A stretch of 64,000 nucleotides of DNA from Chrysomallon squamiferum (GCA_012295275.1 CM022672.1:33232001-33296000), one strand, 5' to 3'. Counted from the first letter of the stretch, positions 6,247 to 47,664 are shown. Numbers and translations are program-made. The notes: a model not told the origin generated them from the sequence alone.

Positions 6247-10113
<3,867 letters not shown>

Positions 10114-10300
10114 TGTCTGTCCATTATTTGTCTGTAAAATACAGGTAAAGTTTACTTCGTTTCTATATAAACACACACACAGACACACACACGCACGCAC
10201 ACACACAGAGTAATATAAATATCACGGTAAACACACACACACACAGAGTCATATAAATAACACATAAACACACACCCAAACACAGAGAGATATTATATTA

Positions 10301-23881: not shown

Positions 23882-23936
23882 CTTTAACCGCTGTTTCTAA
23901 ACAAAGGAAACAAAACACAAAGAAGACGACAATCAT
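23882..23936 (-). pseudogene. Orphan signal-peptide exon of the Cys-peptide-Hint family (unit D)
   Basis: MIVVFFVFCFLCLETAVK-G|GTAAG. It is 55 nt with the same length, phase and FVFCFL core as exon 1 of the intact genes. No Cys-rich or Hint exons were found downstream. Confidence 0.7.
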
Positions 23937-24375: not shown

Positions 24376-25608
24376 TGGAGTAAAAAAAGAAATGATCTTG
24401 TTACAGTTGTTATTATTGTCCCCATTATTATTGTTGCTGTCGCTGTTGTTGTTATTACTATTATTTACTATTACAGTCATACCTTGACTTACGACTATCC
24501 CTACATACGAGTTTTCCGAATTAAGAAGAGCTGCTGGGTCGAATTTTTGCTTTGAGTTGCGAGCCGAAATCCGAATTACGAGCTAGATTCAGATTCACCT
24601 CCGCTAGTTGGCTAAACGAACAACACAGCATACTGCGTCTCACTCGTTTACGTCACGTGATTACCTCGCCGTGGATGCATGTCTGTTGTGTTGTGCACGC
24701 GTTTTGTGCTGTATTTGGCCAAATTTCTTTCTCCTGACCATGAATCCTAAGAAAGTGAGTGAAAAGGACAGTGCTGAGAAGAAGAAGCGGATGATGTCCA
24801 TTGAATTAAGGCATGAAATCATAGAAAAATATGAGACGAGCATAGTTCGTCTGCGATATGTAGTCGATAAAGGCATTAATTCCAGCCAAAGGCGTAAAAT
24901 TAATTTGTCTGATTTCTAAAATAAATACAGTTTACGAAATTGCCGCAACGACTAGCATCCCGTGCAGTACGAGCATGGTGGAAACAGCTCTGTTCTACGA
25001 TATGTTACCATACTGAGTGCAAGGGACAAATGATGTCGATAAAGGCCATGTTCAATTCCAGCCAAAGGCGTAAAATTAATTTGGTCTGATTACCCAAAGG
25101 CCTCAAAATAAATACAGTTTACGAAACCAGTTTATTTTGTACAGACTTATTCGGAAGTATAATAACCATATATGGAACACTGCGCAGTTTCATTCATCGA
25201 ATGTTCTTCTATCCTTATATAGTAAAACCACGTGACTTGGGAAAGTATAAATATACGTTCATTTCAGGCGTCTTTCATCACATCATCAGAATTGCCGAAG
25301 GGATGCTGCAGCCCATTTCAGTGAGTATTAAAATTCATTACTAGTTTTGTCGGATTCTGTTAATCGTAGACGTCTTCCCGCAGAGTTGTAAATATCAGTG
25401 TAGATATCATTTATTCATTGTAAAAAAACATTTTATTTATTATATTCGTTGGCTGTGATAAAAACACGTTGCAAAAGACTGTGTATAAAACATCTAAAAA
25501 CCACCAACAGAAAGGAGATTAAAAAGCTGCTGTATTTTTCTGTCCTCTTCTCGAACAGAGATCGTTCATCTCTTGTCTTTTTGTGTTTTTCGATCCAGGA
25601 TCCATTGA

Positions 25609-26259
25609 GTGATTACGTCCCGCCCTAACGACAATAGAGTAATGATTGTAATACTCCGTAAAGTCTTTTTTATATTCCAGGAAGACGAAGAGTGGCAGTT
25701 TAAGAAGATTTATCTCGTTCCTATCGAAATAGAAAATTACGACAAAAGTGGCGAATCTGTACAACTGTCTGAAACATGCCTTACGAAAGCTACAAACATC
25801 GAGTTCAACAACACCACGTTGTACTCGACTGCTAAACCTGCTCTTCACAGTTTTATTGTGGACGCCGTTGAACGGTTTGGTGTACATCTACTTCCTTATC
25901 AAGTTTATTCTATTGAGACAGAAGAAACGTGCGATCCAGGTCAGCCAGAGACTGTTTTACTCTACGACCCAGAGTGGGAAGAACTCGACGAGTGGCTAGA
26001 CCGATATCTGCCTGATCTGCAGCACATCATTCAGGAAAAAGAAAACAAATACCAACATGTCGTTATCAAAGATGGAGTCATTAGTCACAGAGAGTTTCTA
26101 CCATGTAGTGATAAAATGCAACCAGGAAAAAGTCCAGGACTGCGAGATGCACGAGAAACTTCTTCACCCGAAATACTACGAACCTCAAACGGAAATGACG
26201 GAAGAAGATGGCAGAGTGAAGATTTACCAGAAAAGAGTTTTTACTCAAACTATGGATGA
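25609..26259 (+). CDS. Cargo ORF-b of unknown function (acidic), overlapping the Rep-like ORF in another frame
   Basis: 216-aa open frame, also open in copy 2 (33574-34380). A ttccag| acceptor at 25680 suggests a spliced start. Confidence 0.55.
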   Translation: MITSRPNDNRVMIVILRKVFFIFQEDEEWQFKKIYLVPIEIENYDKSGESVQLSETCLTKATNIEFNNTTLYSTAKPALHSFIVDAVERFGVHLLPYQVYSIETEETCDPGQPETVLLYDPEWEELDEWLDRYLPDLQHIIQEKENKYQHVVIKDGVISHREFLPCSDKMQPGKSPGLRDARETSSPEILRTSNGNDGRRWQSEDLPEKSFYSNYG

Positions 26260-26425
26260 GCAACATCTTGATAATCGTGTTCCTTCTGATAATGACGAGG
26301 AAGACTATGATGATGAATGGGCTGCTTGGAAAAACCAGATGAGCCGAGGAAAGATACAACATGAAAAACGATCTGTACAAGACGTCATAATGCAAATGTT
26401 GAAACTTGGACAAATTAGACGTTGA
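26057..26425 (+). pseudogene. Parvovirus Rep/NS1-like ORF with an internal deletion
   Basis: MESLVTESFYHVVIKC... is collinear with 32940-33776 but lacks 156 codons, including the HIHLV and IYLQR motifs. Confidence 0.6.
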
Positions 26426-27385
26426 TACTGAAGATGAACTGTGTCAAAACGAGTGTGAAATGCTCGCTGATGAACCAGTAAGAAATTCTCGAGAGTCTAA
26501 CATTGAGACTCTCATTCGCCTTGACGAGAAAAGAAATGTTTGAGGAAACTGTTATCAATGAGCCTCAACCTCTACTAGAAACTGAAGAATATGTTTGAAG
26601 TATTAACAGTAGATGATTGTTTTAAAAGCAAAAAGCTTTTCAACAAATACTTTTTAGCCTTTTATTAGAGTATAGTTAGATATTTGGATTTTCATTGATT
26701 GGAAATGTTTGCTTCAATTTAACCATTTTGTTGAATATTTTAATAATAAATATTAGTAGCCAGTTTTATGTTATTTTGGTTTAAGTAAAATTAACAAATG
26801 CAGATATGCTACTTTTATTACTATTTTTTTCACCAGTTTTGTTTTTAAGTTTTGACAGAAACATTTGTATTTCGAAAAATGTTTATTTCGGATTTTAATA
26901 CTAAGAATAAAAGAAAATAACAAAGACTTACGTTTTATGTAATTTTTTTTTATTGCATGAAGACAGCAGAAACAGTATCCAGGTACGGTTTTGTTAATTA
27001 TTAATCATCTTGATCATTAACATGTTGATCATCATCATCATCATCACTATCAAATATTAAATCCCATCTACCTTTTCAACCTGTATAATGTTTCCAAAAG
27101 TCACAAGTGTTTGACAAAAATTTAATCTGAAGAAAACGTCTTGGATTAAAGAAAAACGATCCATTTCTTATGTTAAAGTTTTTTAAGTCAGTTAAAATAA
27201 TCAATTTATCAACAGCTTTTAAATTTTCTATCCTCTTTAATAAAATCGTCTCGTTGGATATCCTAACATATCACACAATGAATCATCATTCTTCCCTAGG
27301 TTTTAAGATTTTGATGCATATGAATATCTTGTAATAATTTTCTTCTTATATTTAACATGATTCTTCTGTAATGGTGTGGAATGTC

Positions 27386-27770
27386 TCATTGTGGGCCAAA
27401 AGCAATTCCATGTTGATTATTTAATATGTACTGGCCAGTAGCATTACAAACACCAGGTGTATTCTTAGGTGTATCGATAACAGTTGAATCCAACCAACGT
27501 CTTTTCCTTTGTCTTGGAGGTGGTAACGAAGGAGTAGGAGTAACAGGAGGTACTCTACTTTGATATACTGTATCATGTGTATCCGGTGGTTGACGAGTAG
27601 TATCTGCGTATCTTGATATTGCCGAGTCTTGTAACTGAGCTTTTGAGTCTCGTACATCTTTATCACAAGAAGGTGGCTGTAAAACGGAAGCCTTGTGATA
27701 TTTGGTCACGTGATCCATAAATGTCTTACACATAAATCGTTGATATCGATCTTGTCCGTCGTTATCCTTG
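27386..27770 (-). CDS. Cargo counter-strand ORF with a Pro-rich segment and NLS-like RQRKRRW (copy 1)
   Basis: Homologous to 31480-31932. Its ATG is altered to ATC and it stops earlier. Confidence 0.45.
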
Positions 27771-28261
27771 ATGTATAAATTTTATGAAAACAATAAAATA
27801 AATTACTAAAATGAAAGGCAAACGTTCTTTTTCACAATTTAAAATAAACTAAAATAAATTAATAAAATCTGATTTATATTCTTTTAGAATGGAAAATATA
27901 TAACTATTTCAGGAAGTTGTGCAATGGAGCAAATTACAGAATAACAAATAAGTATACATACTCAATTATTTCCCTTTAATTAGTTAAATTCTGATTATTC
28001 AGGTTGGAGAGGTAACTCCTCCAGCGAGTTCTCTCCCTTCAGTTACACATTACACGGAATTATGACAAGAAATTAATAAATAAAAGACATAACATAAAAA
28101 GACGGACATCAACAAAAAGACGACGTCACTTCGTTGAAAAAGACGTTGATAGGACTTTGAAGATCCCGGTCTCCGACCTCTTCCTTGAAGTCTGGTAAGT
28201 GTATGTCTGGATCACTAGTGTGATGTATGCATGGCTAAAAGATAGTGATGTATCATAAGAC

Positions 28262-28420
28262 TTTCACCTGAAGGATTTACCTTGTGTTTAGACTAACCTG
28301 AAAACAACCTGAAGATGTTACCTTGTCCTGAAAACACCCGAAGACACACCTGAAGATGTTACCTTTTCTTAAGATCACCTGAAGTCTTACATGAAGATGA
28401 TGCCCTCGATGCCCCCGGTA
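28262..28420 (+). repeat. CCTGAAGA-based direct repeats at the cargo end (mirror at 30794-30960)
   Basis: About nine copies of (CA)CCTGAA(G/A)A, ending in GATGCCC.CGATGCCCCC, directly abutting the Tigger right arm. Confidence 0.85.
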
Positions 28421-30061: not shown

Positions 30062-31479
30062 GACAGTGAAAACACAGAATTTAGCTTCACCAGATTTCTC
30101 TTCCGTAATACTAAAAACTAACGTGCGATAAATTCGCCTGTATTCAGATATGCAGACAAATACAGAAAAAAAGAAAGAAAAAAAAAGAAATAACAAATGT
30201 TTTTAAAATTCAGAAATAAAATCGCTTTTATTTCATAGATCTGGTAATAAATGTCTGAAGTCTTTCTAACAGATGTCATTTCAAACTGCGCTTCTGTTGA
30301 TCATCACATTTTTAACGTAGTAAAATTTTAAATTCTGCAAAATAAAAACAAAATAATCCAGAAATGAAAACGCTTTCATTGGACACATCTGGTAATAAAT
30401 GTCTGGTGTTTTTGACACATGTCATTGCAAATGACACTTCTGTTCATCATGGTATTAAAATCATAGCAAATTTTAAATTCTAAAAAATAATAATTTATAA
30501 AAATTCAGGAAATGTATTCGTCTAAAATTGAAAGAATCATCTGTAAATATGCAACAATTTTTATATATTCCCATTATTACTTTACTTCCGCTTCTTTTCT
30601 TTTCTTTTTATTTATATTTATTATACATACGAGTTTAATTCGTTCCATGACCAAGCTCGTAACTCAGTTTGCTCGTATATCAAATCATGTTTCACAACTG
30701 AAATTAACAGAAATACTATTAGTCCGCTCCAGCCCGCAAATATCACTCCAATTATTTGTAATCTGTAAATAAGAAAACATTTATTTATAAATACTGGGGG
30801 CATCGCGGGCATCATCTTCAGGTAAATCTTCAGGTGTTCTTCAGAAAAAGGTAACATCTTCAGGTGTGTCTTCAGGTGTTTTCAGTACAAGGTAACGTCT
30901 TCAGGTTTTCTTCAGCTGTGTCTTCAGGTAAGTCCTAAGACAAGGTAAATTGTTCCGGTGGACATCCTAAGATACATCACTATCTTTTAGTCATACATAC
31001 ATCACACTAGTGATCCGAATATACACTTACCAGACTTCAAGGAAGAGGTCGGAGACCGGGATCTTCAAAGTCCTATCAACGTCTTTTTGAACGAAGTGAC
31101 GTCGTCTTTTTATTGATATCCTTCTTTTTATGTGATATCCTTTCTTTACTCATTTCTTGCCATAATTCCGTGTAATGCCTAACTAAAGGGAGAGAACTCG
31201 TTTTTGCGAATGAGGTCGGAAGAGTTGTCGTCCAACCTGAATAATATTAACTAAATAAAAGGAGATAATTCAATATGTATACTTATTTATTATTTTGTAA
31301 TTTGCTCTATTGCACCACTTCCTGAAATACCTATTTATTACGCAGTTATTTCATGCAATTTTCCATTCTAATGGCATAGAAATCAGATTTTATTTTATTT
31401 TATTTTAAATTGTCAAAAAGAACGTTTGCCGTTCATTTTATTAATTTTGTTTTGTTTTGTTTTATAAAATTTATACATT

Positions 31480-31932
31480 ATGGATAGCGAAGGACAAGAT
31501 CGATATCAGCGATTTCTGTATAAGACATTTATGGATCACGTGACTAACAATAATAAGGCTTCCGTTTTACAGCCACCTTCTGATGATAAAGATGCACGAG
31601 ACTCAAAAGATCAGATACAAGACTCGGCAATATCAAGATATGCAGATACTACTCGTCAACCACTGGATACACATGATACAGTATATCAAAGTAGAGTACC
31701 TCCTGTTACTCCTACTCCTTCGTTACAACCTCCAAGACAAAAGAAAAGACGTTGGATGGATTCAACTGTTATCGATACACCTAAGAATCCGACTGGTGTT
31801 GGTAAAGCTACTGACCAGTACATATTAAATAATCAACATGGAACTGCTTTTGGTCCACAACAAGATATTCAACATTACAAAAGAATCAGGTTAGATACAA
31901 GAAGAAATATCTTAAAACCTAGGGAAGTATGA
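31480..31932 (+). CDS. Cargo counter-strand ORF, 150 aa, Pro-rich with NLS-like RQKKRRW
   Basis: ATG-initiated open frame convergent with the Rep-like ORF, followed by a further degenerate ORF (~31930-32270) and AATAAA at ~32317. Confidence 0.5.
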   Translation: MDSEGQDRYQRFLYKTFMDHVTNNNKASVLQPPSDDKDARDSKDQIQDSAISRYADTTRQPLDTHDTVYQSRVPPVTPTPSLQPPRQKKRRWMDSTVIDTPKNPTGVGKATDQYILNNQHGTAFGPQQDIQHYKRIRLDTRRNILKPREV

Positions 31933-32939
31933 TGATTCATCTTGTGATGTGTTCGGATATCCAGTGAGACGATTTTATTATAGCAGATGGAACAATTTCA
32001 GTGGCTGCTAATAAAAAAATCGACAACTGGAGAAGAAGACGGAAAATACATCAATATTTAAAAACTTTTGATTATGTGGATTATTTCAAATGACTTAAAT
32101 AACTTTAATATAAGAATTGGATGGTTTTTCTTTCATCGTAGACGTTTATTCAGATTAAATATTTTTCGAGCTATAAGACATACTAATGATTTTTGGAAAC
32201 ATTATATAGATTCAAATGGTAGGTGGAATTAATATTTAATATTGATGGTGATAACGATCAAGATGATTAATAATTAACAAAACCTTGCCAGCATACTGTT
32301 GATGCTGTCTACATGCAATAAAAAAGCACATAAAACGTAAGTCTTTGTTATTTTCTTTTATTAGTAGTATTAACGTCTGCAATAAAGAATTTTTGTAAGA
32401 GGTTTCACTTTAACAACAGGTAAAAGATCGTGTTAAGTCGTAATAGTTTTATAGTCTTTTATTCTGTCAGTTAAATGTCCATATTTGTAAACATCTTTCA
32501 TGGCTTTTTCCATTCTTAATTTTTTTTTTGATAGTCCATAAGTTTATTGAGTAATTTCATCACCTTCCTTCCGGCTACAGGACCTTGAACTTTGTAAAAA
32601 GTGTTAGTACTAATGTCTGTGTCAAAACTTAATTCACAAAACAAAAACTAGGTTAAATTGGTGAAAATTAGTAACAAAAGTAGCATATATGCATTTGTTA
32701 ATTTTATTTAAATCAAAATGATTTAAAACTGGCAAATAATGGTTAGTATTAAAATATTCAGCAAAATGGTTAAACTGAAGGAAACATTTCGAAGCAACGA
32801 AAATCTAAACATCTAATTCTAATCTAATGAAAGGCTAAATGTATTTTTTGTCAATTTCTCAATATTAGGCTCTCAAGAATTTCTTAAAGCTTCATCAGCG
32901 ACCATTTCAAACTCGTCTTGACACAGTTCATCTTCAGTA

Positions 32940-33776
32940 TCAACGTCTAATTTGCCAAGTTTTGAACATTTGCATTATGACGTCTTGTGTAGACTGTTTT
33001 GCATGTTGTATCTTTACTAGCCTAGTCTGCTTTTTCAAAGCAGCCCATTCATCATCGTCGTCTTTCTCGTCATCATCAGAAGAAACACGATTATCAAGAG
33101 CTTGCTCTGAGGTGACTTTAACATTGGAACGATAAGCAAGATTGTACTCAAGAAGCAAGCCAAAGTGATTACTTCCCATGAAATGGTAAGTGGTATTTCT
33201 TTGTAAGTATATAAGCAATCCCCTCAGTATAATTACTTTACTGCACTGAACAGACAAACTTACCTGTATTGGTTGATTCTTGAGTCCTCTGAATTGCTTA
33301 TCGTTCCCTGCTGATTTTGCTATTCCTACTTTGATACAGACAAGATGAATATGTCTGTTATCACAATTACAAGAAATGTGAAAATCAGACACATGGATGA
33401 CCATCAAAGTCCTACGTCGACTATTACCGTGAATCGGAGGATTTGTCGGAGGATCAGAAGGTAAAAAGAGCTTTTCTTTATTGATAAAATCTATTACAGA
33501 TTGAACTGGAATCTTATCAACATCAACTTTCTTACTTTGCCATTTAATACATGGTGAGTCAAGACGCTGATGGTCATCCATAGTTTGAGTAAAAACTCTT
33601 TTCTGGTAAATCTTCACACTGCCATCTTCTTCCGTCATTTCCGTTTGAGGTTCGTAGTATTCCGGATGAAGAAGTCTCTCGTGCATCTCGCAGTCCTCCA
33701 CCTTTTCCGGGTTGCATTTTATCACTACATGGTAGAAACTCTCTGTAACTAATGGCGCAATCTTTGATAACGACAT
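32940..33776 (-). CDS. Parvovirus Rep/NS1-like HUH endonuclease domain (endogenous viral element); no helicase domain visible
   Basis: The N-terminal FYHVVIK resembles AAV Rep FYEIVIK. The HUH motif RHIHLV is followed ~48 aa later by LLIYLQR, a candidate catalytic Tyr helix. No SF3 Walker A motif is seen downstream. Confidence 0.62.
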   Translation of the reverse strand: MSLSKIAPLVTESFYHVVIKCNPEKVEDCEMHERLLHPEYYEPQTEMTEEDGSVKIYQKRVFTQTMDDHQRLDSPCIKWQSKKVDVDKIPVQSVIDFINKEKLFLPSDPPTNPPIHGNSRRRTLMVIHVSDFHISCNCDNRHIHLVCIKVGIAKSAGNDKQFRGLKNQPIQVSLSVQCSKVIILRGLLIYLQRNTTYHFMGSNHFGLLLEYNLAYRSNVKVTSEQALDNRVSSDDDEKDDDDEWAALKKQTRLVKIQHAKQSTQDVIMQMFKTWQIRR

Positions 33777-34380
33777 GTTGATATTTGTTTTCTTTTTCCT
33801 GAATGATGTGCTGCAGATCAGGCAGATATCGGTCTAGCCACTCGTCGACTTCTTCCCACTCTGGGTCGTAGAGTAACACAGTCTCTGGCTGACCTGGATC
33901 GCACGTTTCTTCTGTCTCAATAGAATAAACTTGATAAGGAAGTAGATGTACGCCAAACCGTTCAACGGCGTCCACAATAAAACTGTGAAGAGCAGGTTTA
34001 GCAGTCGAGTACAACGTGGTGTTGTTGAAATCGATGTTTGTAGCTTTCGTAGGACATATTTCAGATAGTTGTACAGATTCGCCACTTTTGTCGTAATTTT
34101 CTATTTCGATAGGAACGAGATAAATCTTCTTAAAGTGCCACTCTTCTTCTTCCTGGAAAATAAAAAAGACTTTACGGAGTATTACAATCATTACTCTATT
34201 GTCATCAGGGCGGACTGTGATCACCCACGACGTAATCACTAAATGGATCCTGGATTGAAAAACACAAAAAGACAAGAGATGAACCATCTCTGTTCGAGAA
34301 GAGGACAGAAAAATACAGCAGCTTTTTTCTTCTTCGTTCTGTTGGTGGTTTGCAGATATTTTATACACAGTCTTTTGCAA
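33574..34380 (-). CDS. Cargo ORF-b, copy 2
   Basis: 268-aa open frame highly similar to 25609-26259, overlapping the Rep-like ORF by ~200 nt. Confidence 0.55.
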   Translation of the reverse strand: MQKTVYKISANHQQNEEEKSCCIFLSSSRTEMVHLLSFCVFQSRIHLVITSWVITVRPDDNRVMIVILRKVFFIFQEEEEWHFKKIYLVPIEIENYDKSGESVQLSEICPTKATNIDFNNTTLYSTAKPALHSFIVDAVERFGVHLLPYQVYSIETEETCDPGQPETVLLYDPEWEEVDEWLDRYLPDLQHIIQEKENKYQHVVIKDCAISYREFLPCSDKMQPGKGGGLRDARETSSSGILRTSNGNDGRRWQCEDLPEKSFYSNYG

Positions 34381-34509
34381 CGTGTTTTTATCACAACCAT
34401 CGAAAATAATAAATAAAATGTTTTTTTTTTTACAATGAATAAATGATATCTACACTGATATTTACAACTCTGCGGGAAGACGTCTACGATTAACAGAATC
34501 CAGACAAAA

Positions 34510-34710
34510 CTAGTAATGAATTTTAATACTCACTGAAATGGGCTGCAGCATTCCCTTCGGCAATTCTGATGTGTGATGAAAGACGCCTGAAATGAACGTA
34601 TATTTATACTTTCCCAAGTCACGTGGTTTTACTATATAAGGATAGAAGAACATTCGATGAATGAAACTGCGTAGTGTTCCATATATGGTTATTATACTTC
34701 CGAATAAACC
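34510..34710 (-). pseudogene. 5'-truncated cargo ORF-a abutting the transposase relic (copy 1 at ~25145-25344, +)
   Basis: LFGSIITIYGTLRSFIHRMFFYPYIVKPRDLGKYKYTFISGVFHH... is present in both loaded copies and absent from the empty copy. Confidence 0.45.
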
Positions 34711-35232
34711 TATACGATATAAATTTGTTTTGTGAAGTGTATTTATCTTGGAAATCAGACAAATTATTATGACGCCTTTGGTTGGAGTTATAGCCTTTAT
34801 TGTTTCCAATTTGCTTCAGTATGGTACATGTCGTATACGTTCTGTGCTGGTAAGGCCTAGCCAAGTTGATTACAAGCACATCTCGCTCATGTTTTTCTAT
34901 GATTTCATCCTTTACTTCAATGGACGTCATCCGCTTCTTCTTCTCAGCAAGTGTCCTTTATGCCCATTTTCTTAGTATTCATGATCAGAAGAAAGAAATT
35001 TTGCAAATTTACGCACAAAACGCGTGCACAACGCAACAGAGATGCTTCCACGGGGAGGTAACCACGTGACGTAAACGAGTGAGACGCGGAATAGCGCCAA
35101 CTAGCGAATCTGTAAGTCGCTCGTAACTCGGATTTAACTCGCAACTCAAAGCACCAAATCGCCCCGGAAACTGCTTGTAATTCAGGAAACTCGTAAGTTG
35201 GGGTACTCGTAAGTCAAAGTAGCACTGTATTT

Positions 35233-35893: not shown

Positions 35894-36254
35894 CTATATC
35901 AGCCACGATGTATAATGGACAAGACTTTTGTATGCGGTTTCCATGTTTGACAAAATTGGACTGAAACCGTCTTCTTGCCACGGCTGTAACAACCAAGGAA
36001 ACCATCGAAATGGAGCTAATGCAATATTTTGTCCGAAATCTTGATTTAGAACATTACAAAAGCAGGAAGCCAGAATTCCATTAACGACAACAGTTCCCGT
36101 GTCCGTCAGAGGAGCGTACAAACCTGGAAAAAAATTAATAATGTGAATGTGTATGCGTGCGAGCATGTGTCTATTCATATGTAGGTGTAATTGTGCGGAT
36201 ATGTGTGGATGTAACTTTCACTTCATCTGTACGTTGACCTATAGTGTGTATGTG

Positions 36255-36293
<39 letters not shown>

Positions 36294-38270
36294 ACATGTT
36301 AACATGTATGAGTGGGTCAACTACTACTACGACTACCACAATTATAATCCGACACGAATATGAGGTATTACGCTATTAATATTACTACTACTACTGCAAT
36401 TACTATTACCTTCACTTTTTTTTATTATTACTATGCTATCTTTATTATTACTATAACTACCGCTAACATTTCTACACGTTCTTCTACCACAATTACTATT
36501 ACCATTATGCTTACCATAACTTAATTAATACTAGATTACCTTGTTTCTTTGAAAGAAATATTTGTACAACTTGTTCAGGACAGATGTCATCCGAGCAACT
36601 TTTTGTGTCAAAGACGTAATCCCCTGGTTTCACTGATTTAGCAAATCTGAAGAAAGAAACGAACAAATAGAGAATAAGAAAGAATAAATACAATTATGAT
36701 ATATGTGTGTGTGTGTGTGTATATATATGTCCTTGACTTACGAGTGCTCCAGCTTACGAGTTTTCCGAATTACTAGCAGTTGCCCGGTCAATTTTTGCTT
36801 TGAGTTGCGAGCCGTAATCCGAGTTACGAGCGAGTTTCAGATTCGCCGCCGCTAGTTGGCGTAACGAACAACACAACATCCGGCCAGCATCACGCGTCTC
36901 ACTCGTTTACGTCACGTGGTTACCTCGCCATGGAGGCATCTCTGTTGTGTTGTGCACGCGTTTTGTGCTGTATTTGGACAAATTTCTTTCTTCTGACCAT
37001 GGATCGTAAGAAAGCGAGTGCAAAGGACAGTGCTGAGAAGAAGAAGCTGATGATGTCCATTGAATTAAAACATGAAATCGTAGAAAAACACGAGCTAGGT
37101 GTGTGTGTAGTCGACTTGGCTAGGCAGTATGAGCGTAGTAATTCCACGTTATGAACTCCAGCCAAAAGATAGATACACTTTACGAAACCAATTTGTTTCT
37201 TTACAATCTCTTTTATTTTGTTTTTATACAATATTTATTATTTATAAATACATTTTTTCTTTATAAAAACACGTTACGAAAAGTTGGGCTGGTTTCTGCG
37301 GGCTGGAACGGATTAATGGTATTTCTGATAATTTCAGACGAGAAACATGATTTGATACACGAGCAAATTGAGTTACGAGCTCGGTTAGGGAACGAATTAA
37401 ACCCGTAAGTCAAGGTACCACTGTATATATAAAGAGAATTCTGTTTTAATAGTTTACAAAAGATCCTTGATCAATGTTCACGTTTTCATCAAATAGCAAA
37501 TGTTTCAAAATGACAGATATGAAATCTTAAATATCATTGGTATTAAAATGTTAAGATTGACATAAAAGTTATCTACCTTAAACAGTTAAAAATTCAAATG
37601 AATTATTAATTATTAATTATTAAAATATATGTTTAAGATTCACAAATCGGTGATGTACTTACATTCATTTATTGCTAAGAAACCAATTTGAACCTGTTTT
37701 TGGAAATTTATTAAGCAACGACTTTAAGAAAAGTGTAATAAGCACAGGAATAAAAACAAAGAAAACAAACATGGGTTCCAAGTTGGCTGAGGTATTTGTA
37801 GAAGTAAACACAACATGTAATTCGGTGAGAGAAAGTCGATGGCCTTGTTCTGTAATCAGAGTCACAAATGTCGTATTTGGTGCTGGTTGACGATGAAGAA
37901 ATGTTCTGACTTCAGAAAACACTCGCCTTCCGTTTTGTACTGAAAATAAAGAGAACAAATTTTAATTAATAAAATTCATGTCTACAATTTGCTTTGAAAT
38001 CTGGATAAATTAATGTATTCAACACAATTCAAATATTTCAGTCGCAAGAAAACGATTGTCTAAAGACCACTATGCCAGTTTCTACAAATATCGTGATGAA
38101 AACCTGTTTTGTTGTAATTACTCGCGAAGTTTCAGATTCACAAATCTATGGTTCTTCTTCTTCTTCTTCTTCTTCTTTTGTATGTATCTTTATCCTATTA
38201 TTATTATTATATTTATTATTATTATTACTGTTATTATTATTATTATTATTATATTTATTATTATTATTAC

Positions 38271-38303
<33 letters not shown>

Positions 38304-39137
38304 TACTATGAGATATTGAGAAGTTCAATTACAGCTCATTAGGCGATAAGCAATAAGCCGATAAGCAGCAAGTTCTAAGAAAAGTGAACACAAATTCTAT
38401 AAAATTGGTTCAGCTGAGTGACGTAGGTATGTAGAGTGTTAAAGAAAACGTCAGTTTGTGACGTGAAACAGTCAGGTGACGTACCAGCGAGAATCTTCTG
38501 TCCTGCAACAAGATTTTTCATTTTTACAGTCTCTCCATTGTCCAGAAGAACAGCGACGTCACCAGGGAAACAGTCTCTGGAATAAAGCTTTGGTTGCGGA
38601 CACGGCAAGCAACATTCCATCAAGTCTTCTGTAGCAGTGCTGTTCCCTCTGCACGCGCAAGGACAAACTACCAGTCTTTTTCCACACGGACACGGAGTAC
38701 CATTACCATCCGGCTGTATCCGACAATTATTGTATTCATTATTTTAGTGTGCTTTTCTTTTTCATTTCATTTCTTTTATTTATTTATTTATTTATTAATT
38801 TATTTATTACTTTTTCTTTATTACTTTATTACTTTATTTATTTATTTATTATTTGTCAAATTGTTATTCAACACACTAAGAATTCACTTTTGAACAAATT
38901 ACTATCGGCTAAACCGCAAAAAAAAAAAAAGAAAAAAAAAAAAGATCGATGAAAAATGTCTTGAAAGAATGAGTCTCTTAATACAGGCTATGCTTCTTTT
39001 TTGTACATATTGAATTTTTTTTCTCTTCATTTCAGTACTGATATTTTACTGCTGTAATTTAAATACTTAAATCCTATTACTACAGAATCTCAGCTAATGT
39101 TCAGTGATAGTGAAGACATTCCTCTCATTGTTACTGA

Positions 39138-39169
<32 letters not shown>

Positions 39170-39676
39170 ACCTTTATAACCTAATCAATTTGAGACTAAC
39201 TATTAACGTATAAAATAAAGAGGAACACTTACTCCAATTCCAGGAAGTCCGCTAACTGCAAATAATATGTATAATATTAGAAACCTCATTTGTTAATGTC
39301 CTTCATTATTCAGCTAATAATTATCTCTATAATGACAAAAGCACTATTTTAATAAATTGTAATGGGGAACAACTATATGGTGTTCGATCTAAAAATCAGT
39401 CCAGACCTGGAAAGTATAAGTTGCCATGGCAATATTTATTAAGTAATAAATATTATAAATATTAGTAAGTATTATAACAATTGAATCACTGTGGAATAGA
39501 AACTGAAAAGTACTTGGAAGCGATCAATCTCTCTTGAGTGATTCTGAATAACAGAATATGGGTGAAACTAAATTGTGTCCAGTTACGTCCACGTTTATTT
39601 TTAGCTGAATAATGACAAGATATTGAGGTATGGGATCAGATACGAAAAGCGGCTTGAGAAATAATAATAATAATAA

Positions 39677-39726
<50 letters not shown>

Positions 39727-40713
39727 AAAGTAGTAGTAGTAGTAGTAATTGTGGTAGTAAATTTAGAAAAAAAAAACCCGATAAATTAATAATAATAAAA
39801 TAATAATAATAATAATAATAGTAGTAGTAGTAGTAGTAGAAAAAAAAAAAAAAAAAAAAAATGATGATGATGAAATCATCAAAGACTTAATAATAAATAA
39901 ACATAATTACTGAGCGACGTCGTGTACGCATTGGCCGGGGTTAAGCCGTCCTATTGCTTCACGACGTTGATTTTCCGTTAAGCCTGAACAGCGACCCATT
40001 ATAACAGGATAAAAACCTTCCTTTTGTTTTTTTGACAATGTTGGTTCAGTGCATCCGTATTGCACGCGCCTCTGCGAGAGGCACGTGCGCAATGCGTTTG
40101 CACGTGCAGTACACTTGGCCACGTGCGGATATGACACTCGGTGTTCTTTTCATTACCCAAAACAACATGGCGCATACAACTGATGTATTACTAAGTTTTA
40201 TCACTTCATTTCAGTTTACTTGGAAGCTATAAAAAACTTGCTAAACTTTATTTTGGGTTAAGTGTAGTATTCTAAAAGGCTCCGGTTAAGTTCTGGTTTA
40301 ATAATCATCTTATATAGGAGCTGTATAAATGGCGATTGTGGACACATTTTGATGTTTCAACCAACACATCAATATCTTGCAACCAAATACACAGAAACTG
40401 GTCACTATTGGACGTAAATTGGTGATCCTCTAGAATATGAATTTCTCATTTCTTCACTTTTTTTAATGTTAATGTGCGAAAAATTAAAATTCCCTTTTCA
40501 GTTGAGTCGTATTTTCTGGATTATCTATATCCTGCTATATTTGTAGCCTGGTTGGGTCTTGTGAAATTGTTTTGAACTCTTTCTGTCATTGCAAAGAGAT
40601 ACTGAATTTCTTGTTTGACGCTATGTAAAAGCTATGGTTATATTTATCGTATTCTTACCTGTTAAAGATGATTTCACACAAAGAAAACAAAACACGAACG
40701 TTAAAAGATCCAT
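35894..40713 (-). CDS. Hedgehog-related protein A: signal peptide + 8-Cys mini-domain + Hint/Hog domain, 270 aa
   Basis: Exons 40713-40659 (MDLLTFVFCFLCVKSSLT), 39255-39233 (VSGLPGIG), 38713-38485 (PDGNGTPCPCGKRLVVCPCACRGNSTATEDLMECCLPCPQPKLYSRD|CFPGD..), 37939-37771 (FSEVRTFLHR..LSLTELH), 36646-36540 (FAKSVKPGD) and 36123-35894 (GLYAPLTDTGTVVVNGILASCF..APFR..). All GT-AG and phase-consistent, 813 nt with no internal stop. Confidence 0.9.
36731..37423 (+). mobile_element. Empty Tigger/pogo MITE (copy 3, ~0.7 kb) in an intron of Hint gene A
   Basis: CCTTGACTTACGAG ... CGTAAGTCAAGGTACCACTG|TA, with transposase relic MDRKKASAKDSAEKKKLMMSIELKHEIVEKHELGVCVVDLARQYERS. It has the same arms as copies 1 and 2 but no cargo. 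Confidence 0.9.
39907..40266 (-). mobile_element. 5' fragment of a Tc1/mariner element in intron 1 of Hint gene A
   Basis: TA-CACTTAACCCAAAATAAAGTT terminus on the minus strand, then a Tc1-type paired-like HTH start MGRCSGLTENQRREAIGRLNPGQCVHDVAQ, truncated at a microsatellite. Confidence 0.65.
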
Positions 40714-40839
40714 GATAGTAAATTTAACTTCTACAGATTTTTCAATACTGTAATATATATTAGTAGCGTGACTGCTATTTAAATATTCTGTAAAAAAAAA
40801 ATGTTTTTGTTTTCCACCGATATATTCGTCAATGTTCAT

Positions 40840-41184
40840 TAAAATTCAGAACCAAAATAAAGATTCAATTGATCTAGTGATCATGCCTGGCAATGGATTA
40901 TGACAGGTGTCATTTCAAACAGTATTTTTATTTTAACCATCATATTTAAATTGTGCAAAATAAAAACAATTCATGAAGCAAATCGTTTTCATTTAGTAAT
41001 AAATGCCTGCAATATGTTTGATAGTTGTCGTTTCAAATTTCATTTATGTTAATCATTGTTTAAAAAACACATGAATTTTAATTAATTTTTTTTGTTGTTT
41101 TTAAAAATACTGCAAAGTACACAATAATAAAAAACAGTCGCTTTCATGTCACAGATCTAGTATACAATGCCAGTATTTTTTAAA

Positions 41185-41217
<33 letters not shown>

Positions 41218-41453
41218 TATTGCATTGATTTAAAAAAATAATTTTTTTTCCTATTTTTTCAAACAGCACTTCTGTTACTCATTGCCTTTATAACGTAGGC
41301 AATGTCTAAATTCTGCAAAAACAAAAACAAAATTAACAACAACAACAACAACAGTAGTAGTAGTAGTAGCAGCAGCAGTAGTATTAGTAAATCTGAAAAA
41401 AGAAAAGATGATAAAAGCATAAAAAGATAAAAAATTAATAAAATGATCCAAAA

Positions 41454-41492
<39 letters not shown>

Positions 41493-41556
41493 AATGAAAT
41501 AAATAAATAAATTAATAAATAAAATAAATAAAATAAATAAAATGAAATAAAACAAA

Positions 41557-41599
<43 letters not shown>

Positions 41600-41924
41600 C
41601 TTCCTTGGTTTGTTTTACTTTTGTATTAAAAATTTTCATCATCACATTAAAAACTCACTAAGTAACACACGCCTACACTATTTTTGGCAAATGTCCTTTC
41701 GAACTAAGCTTCTGATCATTAGTTGTGTAAATAACGTGAACATTTTAAAATTCTGCTAAATAAAATATAATGCAGAAAGGAAATCGTTTTCATTGCATAG
41801 ATCTTCCAATAAATGCCAGCAGAATTTCCTTTCTTTTTTTTCTTTTTTTTTGATTTATGTCGTTTCAGACAACACTTTTGTTAATCATCGTCTTAAAATC
41901 GTAGGAAATGTTTATAATTTGCCC

Positions 41925-41963
<39 letters not shown>

Positions 41964-42055
41964 ACAAATTAAATTGCATGTAATAAATGCCTACCATGAT
42001 TCTGACATGTCATTTCAAACAGCAGTTTTGTTCATCAGCAAATTTTGTAAATGTA

Positions 42056-42090
<35 letters not shown>

Positions 42091-42200
42091 AAATTTCAAC
42101 AAAGTTATCACGATTCAGAGATCTGGCGAAACAAATATCTGCAGAGTTGTTTAGTTTTCTTGACAGAAGTCATTTCAAACTGAGCCTCTGTTAATTAAAG
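40840..42200. repeat. Degenerate ~130-170 bp tandem repeat upstream of Hint gene A; also at 30200-30500 and 48930-49300
   Basis: Recurring core AATCGCTTTCAT..ATAGATCT(A/G)GTAATAAATG(T/C)CTG...GTCATTTCAAAC...TGTT.ATCA. Confidence 0.75.
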
Positions 42201-42786
42201 ACATTTATTTGAGGCAACCCTGAAACAGATCCCGGCCAAAAGGGAAAATATCGAAACCATTTCAAACTGCTTCTAAATAATATTCTTACCGTCGTCACCT
42301 GGTCTTTGGCGTTGTTTGTTTTTTGGTAATTTTATTTATTATTGTTATTATCATTCCATGTTCTTGTGTCGATAACTTGTGAGAGATTAATATTCAGTTT
42401 ATTTATAACATAGATACACAGACATGCATTCACACATATAACCATATATAAAAATATATATGAGCCGTATTGGCAGCACACATATACGTAGCAGACTTGA
42501 TTTTTTTCGTGTTCTTAGAGTGAGCCCATTCTTTGTTATTGTTGTCATTATTGTTACAACTGTTGTTCTTGTTTTTCTTGTTATTATTACTACCATTTCT
42601 TGTACTATTACTGTTTGTAGTTGTCTTCATCTATTATTATTACAATTTATGTTATTATTGTTTTTATTATTGTAATTATTATTATTATCATCATCATCAT
42701 CATCATTATTATTATTGTAATTATTATTATTTTTTTTTATTATTATTATTGTAATTATTATTATTATTATTATTATTATTATTGTA

Positions 42787-42829
<43 letters not shown>

Positions 42830-43142
42830 CAAAGATCAATCAATAAACAAGAACAAATAAAAAGGAATTCTGGGTACACGATTAGGTTGCAGTAATACGT
42901 CTGTTGACTCTGGTGGGGCCGTTAAATTTATTGCTGATGTTGTTTGTCATCATCACACACATGTTTACTGAATTCAAAACAGAAAGAAAATAAATTATTT
43001 ATTTATTTATCAGTCCATTCTTTATTATTATTATCATTATTATTACTACTATTGGTGTTTGCTATTATTAGTTATTATTGTAATTATTATAATAATAATA
43101 ATAATAATAATAATTATTATTATTATATTAGTAGTAGTAGCC

Positions 43143-43176
<34 letters not shown>

Positions 43177-43516
43177 AAGTAGTAGTAGTAGCATTAGTAT
43201 TAGCCCCAGAAATTTGGTATTAGTGTGTCTTTCTTTGTTATATATGTATATTTTTCTCTCTGTATATTTTAATTTACATGGGTACAAGTCTGCATGTATG
43301 AATGTAAAACTATTCGTGTGTATATATGTTTCATTCTGTCTCTATGTACGAGTATACATGTTTGGTGAATTGGATTTTAATGTATTACTGCTATGTAAAA
43401 ACAATAAATAAAGACAGTATATTCCATCAGAGCAGGCAGAGAAAGGTTTGTTTTGTCTTCAGACTGAATTGTTTTCGTTTAAAAGACTGCAATACCATTG
43501 TGTAAATGTTGTTATA

Positions 43517-44197
43517 TTATGTCCGCCATGAAGTGTGACTGACAAGATTGTTATAAAGCTTCTCCAAGTTTGACAAAATAGGACTGAAACCGTCTTCTTG
43601 CCACGGCTCTAACAACCAAGGAAACCATCGAAATGGAGACATTGTGAATCTTTGAACGAAATCTTGATTGAGGGCATTTCCAAAGCAGGAAGCCAGAATT
43701 CCATTAACAACAACAGTTCCCGTGTCCGTCAGAGGAGCGTACAAACCTGGAGAAGATTATAAATAATAACAGATTAACAATTTGTCTCTTTGTATAAGCA
43801 TGTCGTTATATTAATACGGGTGCGTTTGGTGTGTCATCTGTTTGCGTATTGAACGAAGCTGTGTCCAGATAAATTAGATAAATAAATACATCTAATACTT
43901 ATACAGACGTACAGATCTGTTGTTATGATCAGTTTCATTATGAAGCATCTGTACGAAAAAGGTTTTGTCTGTCGAGTCTTTCTTAAATAAAGAAAGTAAT
44001 ATTCAAAGACAGTTTTTTTAAATTTATACCATCTTCTCTTTATTTTGTTTTTACGACGCTTGTTAACCTTAAGTAGATTTATAATCAAGAAACGCAAACT
44101 AAAATCTCTTTGAGTTTGAAAACAGTTCATTTTTTAAAATATATTTCAGTGGTGTGCGCAACTTTTTGTTGTTGAATAGTACTGCGATACAGAAAGA

Positions 44198-44245
<48 letters not shown>

Positions 44246-45246
44246 TTAGGAGAAACTATGGTTAAATAGTGTTAAGTCCTTTGTGATCTTCTATTTTGGT
44301 TGCCATGTTAACCAGAACCTGAGCACACGTCCTTGATTACTATTTATTACTGTTATACCAAATTATTATTACTACTGCTTCTGCTGCTACTTCTACTACT
44401 ACTGCCAATTACTACTACTAACTATTACTACTACTACTACTAACTATTACTACTACTACTGCCAATTACTACTACTAACTATTACTATTCCAACAGACTT
44501 TCGCAACTCCTATGAATACTACCATTAACTTTATTATTATTTACTACTACTACTACTACTACTACAACAATAACAACAACAACAACTACTACTACTACCT
44601 CTACCACTAGATTACCTTGTTCCTTAGAAAGAAATATTTGTACAACTTGCTCTGGACAGAGATCATTCCAGCAGCTTTCAGCACTGAATAAATAATCACC
44701 TGGTTTCACTGATTTAGCAAACCTGAAGATAGACAGACAAATTCCTCATAAACAGCGACTGCTTTCATTAAACAGTAAACATAATACAATGGAGCCTTAT
44801 ATATTATTAATATTAAAGTAAAATATATTTTTGAGATTGGCAAATTAATGACGTACTTACATGCCTTTTTTTTCTTTTTTTTTTTTTGCAAAGAAACCTG
44901 TTACGACATTTTTACGAAACTTACTAAGTAACGACTTAAAGATAATCGTAAAGAAAACAAAGAAAACAAACGTAGGTTTCATGCTGGCTGACGTATTACA
45001 GCGTGACGTAAACACAACGTGTAATTCTGACACAGTAAGTTGACGGCCTTGCACTGTGACCAGTGTGAGATACGACATGTTTGATGCTGGTTTACGATGG
45101 AGAAATGTTCTGACTTCAGAAAATACGCGTTTTCCATTTTGTACTGAAATTAAAAGTAAAAAAAAACATTTTCATTTATAAATCTTTACTAGACCCTGTT
45201 TTGAGAAATAAATTATCTTTGGTAGCAAAAAAGGTTGAAAACATCT

Positions 45247-45339
<93 letters not shown>

Positions 45340-47664
45340 AAGAATAGAACGTTGTTAAAGCTTATTCAGTTCTAATCTATCATCTAGTTTCCACCTGTAC
45401 GTTCTTCTTCTTCTTTTTTTTTTTTTTTTTTTTTTTGTGATGTTATTATTATTATTATTTTTTTAATTTTGTTCTATTATTATTGGAAAGATTCACCTAA
45501 GAGTTCATCTGCTGCATAGTAACAAGGAAACAAACTGATTCAAAAAACCTAAAACTGCTTCAGCTCAGGAACGAACTAACGTAGACTGCAAAACGAAAAT
45601 TTCGAAGACGTCAGCGTAACACGAATCAGCAATAAAACGGACAGGAAGACTCACCGGACAGAACTCTTTGTCCTCCGACAAGATCTTTCATTCTTACAGC
45701 CTGACCAGTGTCCAGCCGCACAGTGACGTCACCAGGGAAACAGTTCGAGGACTCTATGGGACACGCAACACAGCATTTCAGTCGATCTTGCGGTCCCTGG
45801 TACGTGCCTTCGCGGCATCCACAGCCACAAGGTAAAACCACATATCCACAAGGACAGAGGTATCCTGCGGGATCTGGGAACGTGATTTTATTTATTTATT
45901 TATTTATTTTTTATACATTTAGCATTAATGAAAAAGAAGCAGATGATTTCAGTTTACTTTTTAATAACTCATTTGTGTTGTTTCAGCGGCCTGCTGATGA
46001 TGAAAAATCAGAATTTCCAAATCGTTAAAATAACGTTAGCCCTGAATTTTGCAGATTATGTTACTGTGATGTAAATTCTGAGATTTTCCTACGTAATGTA
46101 AATACTGACACCTTTTTTTACTGTAATGTAAATGCAGACATCTTTTCTCTCTAATGTAAATACTGATATCTTGTTATAATGATGTAAATACTGATATCTT
46201 GTTATAATGATGTAAATACTGACATCTTGATAATGTACTGTAAATACTGACATCTTGATAATGTACTGTAAATATTGACAGCTTTTTACTGTAATGTAAA
46301 GGCAGACATATTATAACTCTAATGTAAATTCTGAAATCTTGTTAATACAATGTAAACGCAGACACTATGATACGTAAATATGCCTTGTTAAATTTATACA
46401 AAACTGACGTCTTTTTAAATTTATATTAAATACTGACATCGTGTTACTAATATGTGAGTACTTACATTTTCTTGCTGTAATGTAAATAAAGACATCTTGT
46501 TACTTTAATATAAATAGAGATTTTTGTTACTATAATGAAAATACAAAAATCTTGTTAATATAATATAAATACTGGCATTTTGTCACTATAATGTGATTAC
46601 TGATATTTTGTTTACTATTATGTAAATATCGATATTTTGTTATTGTAACGTAACTACATATATCTTGTTCTTATAATGTAAATATTGATATTTGTTATTG
46701 TAATGTAAATTCATACATCGTATTATTATAACGTAAATACTATTCATTTTCTATAGTAATATACATTTTGTTATTGTAAAGTAAATAGTTACATCTTGTT
46801 ATTATAGTGTAAATATTGATATTTTGTTACTATAATAAAAATACAAACATCTCATTCTATTATGGAAATATCGTATCTTATTCTATAATTTAAATACAGA
46901 TATTTTATTCTATAAAGTATAAAAGCTATTTTTATACTGTAATGTAAATACATTCCATTTGTTACTATAAAGACCTCTGATTACTATAAAACATATCTAA
47001 TGTAAATATTTACTATAATGTAAATTCTGAGTTTTCTTCCTGTGATATGAATACTGACAGCTTGTTACTGTAATGTAAATATTGGCATTGTTTGTACCAA
47101 AACCATCAATACAGAATATTTTCTTAAAACCGTGCCGAATTAAAGAGTACAATCTGTATTCGTATTTGTGTTGTTCTTTTGTTTTTTTCTCTCGACTTGG
47201 TTCCATGAATTGTTTTTGTTTAATAACTTTTATGGCATTTCGATCTAAATATCCATGCCAACATCGAAAATATAGTGTTAATAATATTTGTAATAATAAA
47301 ATATTCCGTTAGAAATCCAGGCTATATATATATGTATATTATATATTTATATATAATATAATGTGTGTATGTGTGTGTGTGCGTATACACAAAAAATTAT
47401 TGTTCTTGTAACCTAATATAAAATGTCTGTCTTGGATATTTTATATTTAAATTGGATATTTATTAAATATGTTTGAATTTTCTCTAGCGTCAGTGAAAGG
47501 AGATTTCGATTTTTTTCTGGTTTCTTAATCCAACTCAATATAATTATATAACAAAGCTATAATATGAACAAAATGTTAAGCTCTGGCTTAAAATTTACAA
47601 TTATCTTACCTTTAGCAGCTGCTATAAAAGAAAGGAAACAAAAAACAAACACAGAAACACTCAT
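43517..47664 (-). CDS. Hedgehog-related protein B: signal peptide + 8-Cys mini-domain + Hint/Hog domain, 260 aa
   Basis: Exons 47664-47610 (MSVSVFVFCFLSFIAAAK), 45873-45655 (DPAGYLCPCGYVVLPCGCGCREGTYQGPQDRLKCCVACPIESSN|CFPGD..), 45143-44972 (..LTVSELH..), 44722-44616 and 43746-43517 (GLYAPLTDTGTVVVNGILASCF..). All GT-AG and phase-consistent, 783 nt with no internal stop. Confidence 0.9.
46055..47095. repeat. ~30-bp minisatellite filling much of intron 1 of Hint gene B
   Basis: About 30 diverged copies of TTGTTACT(A/G)TAATGTAAATACTGA(C/T)AT(C/T). Confidence 0.9.

Follow-up and report, generated by a model that had tools for sequence, protein, structure and literature searches.

Tandem Hog genes in Chrysomallon squamiferum predicted to release short, hypervariable eight-cysteine peptides

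The sequence analysed here is a stretch of 64,000 nucleotides from Chrysomallon squamiferum (GCA_012295275.1 CM022672.1:33232001-33296000), referred to below as the window, with positions counted from its first letter. Its minus strand carries two genes, A and B, arranged head to tail between 35894 and 47664. As read from the sequence, A and B are tandemly duplicated, intact-looking Hog genes, and the secreted product of each would probably cut itself at X/CFPGD (the slash marks the bond that is broken), thereby releasing a peptide of 44 or 55 amino acids with eight cysteines that is likely esterified to a lipid at its C-terminus. The genes are real, and their peptides probably represent a new type of cargo within the Hedgehog-related (Hog) proteins, with Lophohog N-domain sequences lying outside the comparison. 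No description of an eight-cysteine Hog cargo was found in the literature searched, which was open-access only.

Structure of the two genes

The exons of the two genes and a third copy of exon 1 are as follows.

47610..47664, minus strand: gene B exon 1; ATG, 18 hydrophobic leader codons and 1 nucleotide (phase 1), donor GTAAGA
45655..45873, minus strand: gene B exon 2; eight-cysteine peptide (44 amino acids, 45873-45743), predicted catalytic Cys codon 45742-45740 (CFPGD), first 29 Hint residues
44972..45143, minus strand: gene B exon 3; middle of Hint, His codon at the general-base position 45099-45097, donor GTTTGT
44616..44722, minus strand: gene B exon 4; 35 codons of Hint covering profile positions ~97-139, placed by frame and splice sites
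43517..43746, minus strand: gene B exon 5; C-terminal block of Hint, second conserved Cys (SCF, codon 43687-43685), SRR/ARR-like tail, TAA
40659..40713, minus strand: gene A exon 1; ATG, 18-codon leader and 1 nucleotide (phase 1), homologous to gene B exon 1
39233..39255, minus strand: gene A mini-exon; 23 nucleotides, acceptor tttgcag, donor GTAAGT, shifts phase 1 to phase 0
38485..38713, minus strand: gene A exon 2; bulk of the 55-amino-acid eight-cysteine peptide, predicted catalytic Cys codon 38572-38570, initial Hint residues
37771..37939, minus strand: gene A exon 3; middle of Hint, general-base His codon 37895-37893
36540..36646, minus strand: gene A exon 4; Hint
35894..36123, minus strand: gene A exon 5; C-terminal block of Hint, SRR/ARR-like tail, TAG
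23882..23936, minus strand: orphan third copy of exon 1; ATG, 18 hydrophobic codons, 1 nucleotide, GTAAGA donor

Gene B has five exons (783 nucleotides, 260 codons and TAA) and gene A has six (813 nucleotides, 270 codons and TAG). The frame is open throughout in both genes and all of their introns are GT-AG. The donor of exon 3 is a weak GTTTGT that is identically placed in the two genes, and no other choice preserves both the frame and the Hint alignment. Gene B exon 2 has an additional in-frame acceptor at 45864. Exon 4 of gene B has no Pfam match when searched alone and is 82.8% identical in nucleotides to exon 4 of gene A, and exon 1 of gene B together with its 5' flank is 65% identical to that of gene A. 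In gene A, exon 1 ends in phase 1 and exon 2 begins in phase 0. The mini-exon is required because exon 1 spliced straight to exon 2 runs into stops. An alternative first exon of gene A is possible at 39289-39233 on the minus strand, with its own in-frame ATG at 39289 and a hydrophobic leader of 19 amino acids; with either the mini-exon or this ATG, the product would therefore be secreted. The original prediction, made from the sequence alone, had described two intact spliced genes with an 18-amino-acid leader, a peptide of 44 or 55 amino acids in a defined cysteine framework and a full Hint domain, and the rebuilt exon chains bear this description out.

The leader is 18 amino acids long in both genes, with a mean Kyte-Doolittle hydropathy of 1.58 in A and 1.98 in B. 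The 18-amino-acid leaders range from 1.58 to 2.26 and have a core with no charged residue, and they are taken as putative secretion signals on this hydropathy. The peptide that follows, 44 amino acids in B and 55 in A, has eight cysteines in each gene, arranged in the framework C-P-C-x6-C-x-C-x-C-x12/13-CC-x2-C-P, and ends at a predicted cut site that reads D/CFPGD or N/CFPGD in the two genes. The peptide and the first Hint residues are encoded on one exon, exon 2. A regular-expression scan of six frames found the framework in only these two places in the 64 kilobases. The cysteines would be expected to form four disulfides in the released peptide.

The predicted net charge is 0 for peptide A and -1 for peptide B, and the visible parts of the relatives described below range from -4 to +2. 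The peptides are neutral to acidic, unlike the cationic defensins, and this speaks against an antimicrobial role of the classic cationic type.

Relatives and divergence of peptide and Hog domain

A HMMER search with gene B exon 2 against 1.84 billion representatives gave four matches, three of which are real and are short open reading frames homologous to exon 2. A profile search added two more, for a total of five exon-2 reading frames, all from ENA assemblies. The fourth match, P0001, a bacterial repeat protein of 2456 amino acids, aligns only through a repeated GDVTVHLDNGQ-like motif and was rejected as spurious. Four of the five related reading frames are recorded on one contig of 409,003 nucleotides and each is the sole member of its cluster; four homologues on one contig suggest a tandem array elsewhere. 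The framework fragment CxCxC...CC..C followed by CF[PD]G is seen in four of the five, while P0004 has CC..C only. The framework is not due to chance, because it recurs in reading frames from another assembly. All five related reading frames read through the same phase-1 donor (..TG/K or ..TG/N, the slash here marking the donor), which supports the boundary of exon 2. Hint is matched in all seven members of the family (A, B and the five reading frames). Word-index protein searches with exon 2 and exon 5 returned no longer relatives and no animal Hog protein, from a collection apparently poor in spliced animal proteins. Pattern searches gave 241 and 101 matches in JGI metagenome contigs and 13 and 112 in IMG/VR, with none confirmed in either.

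The peptide and the Hog domain differ greatly in how far they have diverged. Between A and B, 17 of 44 aligned peptide residues are identical, and outside the cysteines 9 of 36, versus 141 of 197 residues in the Hog part, where the ratio of nonsynonymous to synonymous substitution (dN/dS) is 0.29. Across the exon-2 sequences (n=7, 21 pairs), identity at the non-cysteine positions of the peptide, counted between the CxCxC run and the cut, is 66/430 (15%), and in the first 29 Hint residues of the same pairs it is 402/609 (66%). The closest pair, P0003 and P0005, shares 27 of 29 Hint residues versus 6 of 24 in the peptide. Loop lengths also differ among the members. A fixed cysteine scaffold with nearly randomised loops, as judged from these alignments, holds across the seven members, which is stronger than two genes alone could show.

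The contrast extends to the nucleotide level, where the codon-level comparison covers A versus B only. Similarity by blastn begins at 38574/45744, inside exon 2 and 2 nucleotides before the Cys codon, and no peptide-coding stretch of A and B is aligned by blastn. Third-codon positions are identical in 15 of 42 peptide codons (10 of 34 outside the cysteines; chance is ~0.26) versus 21 of 29 codons in the Hint part of that exon and 141 of 197 over the whole Hog part, both 72%. The proportion of synonymous differences (pS) is 0.81 in the peptide and 0.38 in the Hog part. Exons 4 and 5 are 82-83% identical in nucleotides, and exon 1 with its flank is at the 65% given above. Silent sites too are saturated in the peptide part, and therefore positive selection of the kind seen in toxins is not demonstrated; gene conversion of the Hog part accounts for the contrast equally well. 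The pattern fits three readings: gene conversion has homogenised the Hog part, mutation is faster in the peptide part, or the loops are no longer positionally homologous.

The first of these, concerted evolution, is a plausible account of the contrast, if somewhat short of a probable one. In this explanation conversion among the tandem copies homogenises the Hog part, the peptide keeps an old and saturated divergence, and no toxin-like positive selection is involved. It is favoured by the third-codon identities, the pS values and the start of nucleotide similarity 2 nucleotides ahead of the Cys codon, and by the greater divergence of exon 1 with its flank compared with exons 4 and 5. However, the switch from divergence to similarity coincides exactly with the functional boundary in each of two independent comparisons (A with B, and P0003 with P0005), and loop lengths vary. 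A break at this boundary is predicted by selection on the cargo and not by random conversion tracts, unless tracts that reach the peptide are disfavoured, which again amounts to diversifying selection.

These results bear on several claims of the original prediction. Its fixed cysteine scaffold with variable loops stands across the seven members. The statement that almost all non-cysteine residues differ captures the strong contrast with the Hog part and is slightly overstated, given the 9 of 36 that are identical. The claim that the peptides evolve like toxins or defensins is not established, with third-codon positions of the peptide also at chance, positive selection inseparable from conversion or older divergence, and charges of 0 and -1. 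Tandem birth and death is borne out as far as the tandem pair goes; the birth and death part rests solely on the orphan exon 1 at 23936-23882. Downstream of that orphan, tblastn and regular-expression scans found no peptide or Hog exon within the 64-kilobase window. The diversification of the cargo suggests a role in extracellular recognition, signalling or defence.

The Hog domain and the fate of the peptide

Collinear matches to the Pfam Hint profile PF01079 (profile length 213; cut-off, or gathering score, 29.7 bits) come from exon 2 (positions 7-41), exon 3 (45-96) and exon 5 (140-187 or 140-189). Exon 3 of gene B (39.0 bits) and exon 5 of both genes (gene B, 42.7 bits, 140-187; gene A, 46.5 bits, 140-189) each exceed the cut-off alone. 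The Cys of CFPGD is aligned to the Cys of the GG/CFPG cleavage site of human Sonic hedgehog (chain 7e2i_G), and Cys-Phe is invariant at the start of Hint in all seven sequences.

Exon 3 of gene B aligns with residues 33-75 of Drosophila Hh-C, both the wild type (1AT0) and the D46H variant (6TYY). TFLHR, present in both genes, is aligned to LFMDR of Drosophila Hh-C, with His at the position of the general-base Asp (D46; D303 in Drosophila Hh). The best PDB match of exon 3 is the D46H variant 6TYY (E-value 0.011), with wild-type 1AT0 at an E-value of 0.23. A His at this position is also seen by eye in nematode (WLHR, WIHA), Hydra and protist Hogs (S9 of PMC2362128). The next motif, SELH in gene B (Ser codon 45030-45028, His codon 45021-45019) and TELH in gene A, is aligned to TPAH of 1AT0/6TYY and retains the His (H72). 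ILASCF is aligned to VAASCY within residues 125-144 of 1AT0/6TYY, and its Cys is the second conserved Cys, C143, which is kept. After SCF there is a tail of ~50 residues in which SPFRW corresponds to APMRL/APFRL at the start of the sterol-recognition region (SRR) of Hh; exon 5 of gene B is aligned to residues 382-426 of Drosophila Hh and 345-384 of human SHH. The 22-residue block GLYAPLTDTGTVVVNGILASCF in the C-terminal part of Hint is identical in A and B, as the original prediction had it, and the tail is strongly conserved between the two genes, including RWFPWLL and PWQEDGFSPILSN. By these alignments, the residues required for self-cleavage are all present in both genes.

A processing route modelled on Hedgehog would run as follows. 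The precursor would enter the endoplasmic reticulum and its signal peptide would be removed. The first Cys of Hint would undergo an N-to-S acyl shift and form a thioester with the preceding residue. The His, in the role of Hedgehog's Asp, would then activate the hydroxyl of a lipid held by the tail, or water would resolve the thioester. The peptide of 44 or 55 amino acids with its four disulfides would be set free, likely with an ester to a sterol or other lipid at its C-terminus, and would be tethered to the membrane if lipidated. According to a review, the D303H swap in Drosophila Hh retains structure and activity and broadens the range of accepted sterols, and work on D303A and D303H indicates that the general-base residue is required for the transfer step and not for thioester formation (PMC9163320).

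Several points weigh against this reading. The position of Thr69 is Ser in gene B, and in place of the Gly that precedes the scissile bond in Hedgehog the family has N, D, S, T, I or H. The tail aligns only with the start of the Hh SRR (Drosophila Hh 402-426; SHH to 384) and the rest is unmatched. Sterol transfer by nematode Hog proteins is itself unproven (PMC2362128). AlphaFold, run on exon 2 with seven sequences, gave a predicted local distance difference test score (pLDDT) below 50 over residues 1-46 and no confident peptide fold, and on the gene A peptide alone, as a single sequence, it gave a mean pLDDT of 58.9, which is low confidence. For gene A's 23-nucleotide mini-exon and for the weak GTTTGT donors, the joins are predicted.

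Some of these features bear on another reading, in which the Hog domain does nothing but cut, through hydrolysis or transfer to a small nucleophile, and acts as a pro-domain whose removal leaves the peptide free of lipid. The adduct of Hogs other than Hedgehog is unknown, hence the name ARR (PMC2362128), the tail resembles no more of the Hh SRR than its first part, and the residue preceding the cut varies. However, the general-base His is kept in both genes, a residue that serves the transfer step (PMC9163320), and the tail sequences of the two genes agree well. Release without lipid is considered rather unlikely, and lipidation during self-cleavage more likely.

Novelty of the peptide

The original prediction did not recognise the N-domain, and this agrees with the profile searches: the eight-cysteine peptide matches no Pfam family in any of the seven family members at E-values up to 10. 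Known disulfide-rich toxin, defensin and knottin families gave no Pfam profile match for the peptide. A PDB sequence search with the peptide returned only midkine, with an E-value of 0.093 and for gene B alone. The midkine/pleiotrophin N-domain (Pfam E-value 0.88, PDB E-value 0.093, gene B only) has its cysteines out of register and was set aside as a chance match. The best score among ESM Atlas features was 0.82, which is under the useful range.

The peptide would not be new if A and B were members of Lophohog or of some other reported lophotrochozoan Hh-related family, which seems unlikely. Lophohog has been described from Lottia, Acanthochitona and Capitella as a Hog domain joined to an N-terminal domain unique to it, and limpets are reportedly enriched in Hh-related genes, with 11 transcripts in Lottia cf. 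kogamogai (PMC5103448, PMC9695228). The motifs YAPLTDTG, TFLHR and RWFPW, on the other hand, are not in the Burglin 2008 sequence table (S9, PMC2362128), a table that predates Lophohog.

Integrity of the gene models

It could also be that one or both genes, gene A especially, are unexpressed relics. Gene A needs a 23-nucleotide mini-exon to avoid the stops of a direct join of exons 1 and 2, and the orphan copy of exon 1 implies that decay occurs at this locus. Yet both frames are open over ~800 nucleotides, the splice sites are canonical, the catalytic residues are all kept and the Hog part has a dN/dS of 0.29. The acceptor of the mini-exon is good and its donor is GTAAGT, and an in-frame ATG followed by a hydrophobic leader lies in that stretch too. 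That the genes are relics is improbable.

Metallothionein motifs resemble the CxC/CxCxC/CC/CxxC pattern of the peptide, but a metal-binding, metallothionein-like peptide in place of a disulfide-knotted one is very improbable here, since a peptide with a leader and a Hog domain would pass through the secretory pathway, which is oxidising, none of the 7 members matches a Pfam metallothionein family at E-values up to 10, cysteine makes up 8 of 44-55 residues and the peptide includes aromatic residues.

The introns of the two genes contain several repeats. In intron 1 of gene B, ~900 nucleotides (46059-46970) are a minisatellite with units of ~28 base pairs and also periods of 56 and 84 base pairs. 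A (TAT)n microsatellite at 38196-38302 lies in the intron directly after gene A exon 2. In P0003, residues ~64-90 are read-through of the donor into a run of Tyr codons, which hints that this relative has the same type of repeat at the same place. Inverted copies of one repeat are found at 34944-35213 (minus strand) and 36804-37154 (plus strand), with similar reading frames (..SHSFTSRGYL..EASLL.CARVLC..) and no Pfam match. They lie just downstream of gene A and in its intron 3, bracketing exons 4 and 5, and are probably fragments of a transposon.

Neighbouring features

The window is AT-rich (GC content mostly 0.24-0.35) and contains introns and dense microsatellites. The other features noted in the window are as follows.

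7095-7316, minus strand: RING-H2 finger exon (zf-RING_2, E-value 2.7e-08), downstream of an 818-amino-acid open frame
7765-10221, minus strand: the 818-amino-acid frame, rich in Ser, Arg and Asp, no Pfam match; lies in the one region of the window with higher GC content (0.46)
25104-28306, plus strand, and 30919-34750, inverted: palindromic segmental duplication, ~3-4 kilobases per arm, six inverted blocks that are 86-95% complementary

The RING-H2 exon and the 818-amino-acid frame are probably one RING E3 ligase gene. The palindrome contains long reading frames with no Pfam match, for example 25609-26259 (plus strand) and 33574-34449 (minus strand). A putative decayed fragment of Hog at ~49.33-49.5 kilobases (plus strand) was rejected; its local alignment score of 32 was also reached in 6 of 190 control windows. 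Rfam and transfer RNA scans of the window gave no match.

Significance

Hog domains are known to acquire new N-terminal cargoes, and outside Hedgehog the released part and its adduct are almost unknown. The family described here is a natural test case for whether Hogs other than Hedgehog lipidate their cargo, with which lipid, and what a lipid-anchored mini-protein is for. The cutter stays constant while a tiny, cysteine-framed cargo changes, and the general-base position naturally has His, the substitution that widens sterol tolerance in the laboratory. Such a system would be a ready-made scaffold for self-lipidating peptides. It is tempting to go further and to see the self-cleaving, lipid-attaching Hog domain as a general delivery device for tandemly expanding, hypervariable eight-cysteine mini-proteins, a sterol-tagged library that varies at the cargo only; this is possible, and is put forward as a tentative suggestion. 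If it is true, both the class of cargo and the mode of evolution have not been described for Hog proteins.

Comparison with known systems

Hedgehog is represented here by Drosophila Hh-C (1AT0, 6TYY), the full-length protein (6TD6) and human SHH (7E2I). The two genes share with it the Cys-Phe of the cleavage site, a collinear Hint domain, the x-x-H motif, C143, the start of the SRR and a secreted precursor. They differ in what precedes the cut, which in Hedgehog proper is the N-terminal Hedge domain of ~170 amino acids and here is just 44-55 amino acids. Pfam searches of both genes and the relatives returned no family but Hint at E-values up to 10, and so no Hedge domain. Hedgehog has Asp as the general base, Gly before the cut and Thr69, whereas His, residues other than Gly and, in gene B, Ser are found here. 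The SRR-like tail is also shorter than that of Hedgehog, and the Hog domain is spread over four exons.

Pfam includes a Ground-like model. None of the seven members has a Pfam match to the N-domains of Wart, Ground or Qua at E-values up to 10, and Wart and Qua may lack Pfam models. Warthog, groundhog and quahog are nematode Hog families (PMC2362128). In enoplean nematodes, processed N-peptides of 15, 25 and 34 residues are reported for Short-hog genes, and Xhog1 and Xhog2 of Trichinella (Ts) are chromosomal neighbours with six conserved cysteines upstream of Hog (PMC2362128). The Short-hog/Enop-hog group (Xiphinema Shog1/2, Trichinella Xhog1/2/3) has in common with genes A and B a signal peptide and a short, lineage-specific N-peptide followed by Hog. 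The CxCxC run is shared with Ts Xhog1/2 when supplement S9 of PMC2362128 is compared by eye. By the same kind of inspection, Enop-hog has six cysteines and ~28 residues from the last Cys to the cut, while the peptides described here have eight cysteines, the last of them 5-8 residues ahead of the cut. The pair of cysteines in the centre of nematode Hogs is not apparent here. The two Hog genes of Hydra, which are close paralogs, have a long and unrelated sequence upstream of the cut (S9, PMC2362128).

Lophohog, likened here by its description only, has in common with genes A and B a Hog domain joined to a lineage-specific, secreted N-domain that is not Hedge, in invertebrates other than nematodes.

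Superfamilies of the conotoxin type have a conserved signal and pro region, a fixed cysteine framework, hypervariable loops and tandem expansion. By analogy, the genes described here resemble them in fixed cysteines, in near-random loops beside a conserved processing region, in diverged silent sites and in tandem arrangement. In conotoxins, however, an N-terminal propeptide is cut by proteases, whereas here a C-terminal Hog domain would cleave itself and the peptides are neutral to acidic.

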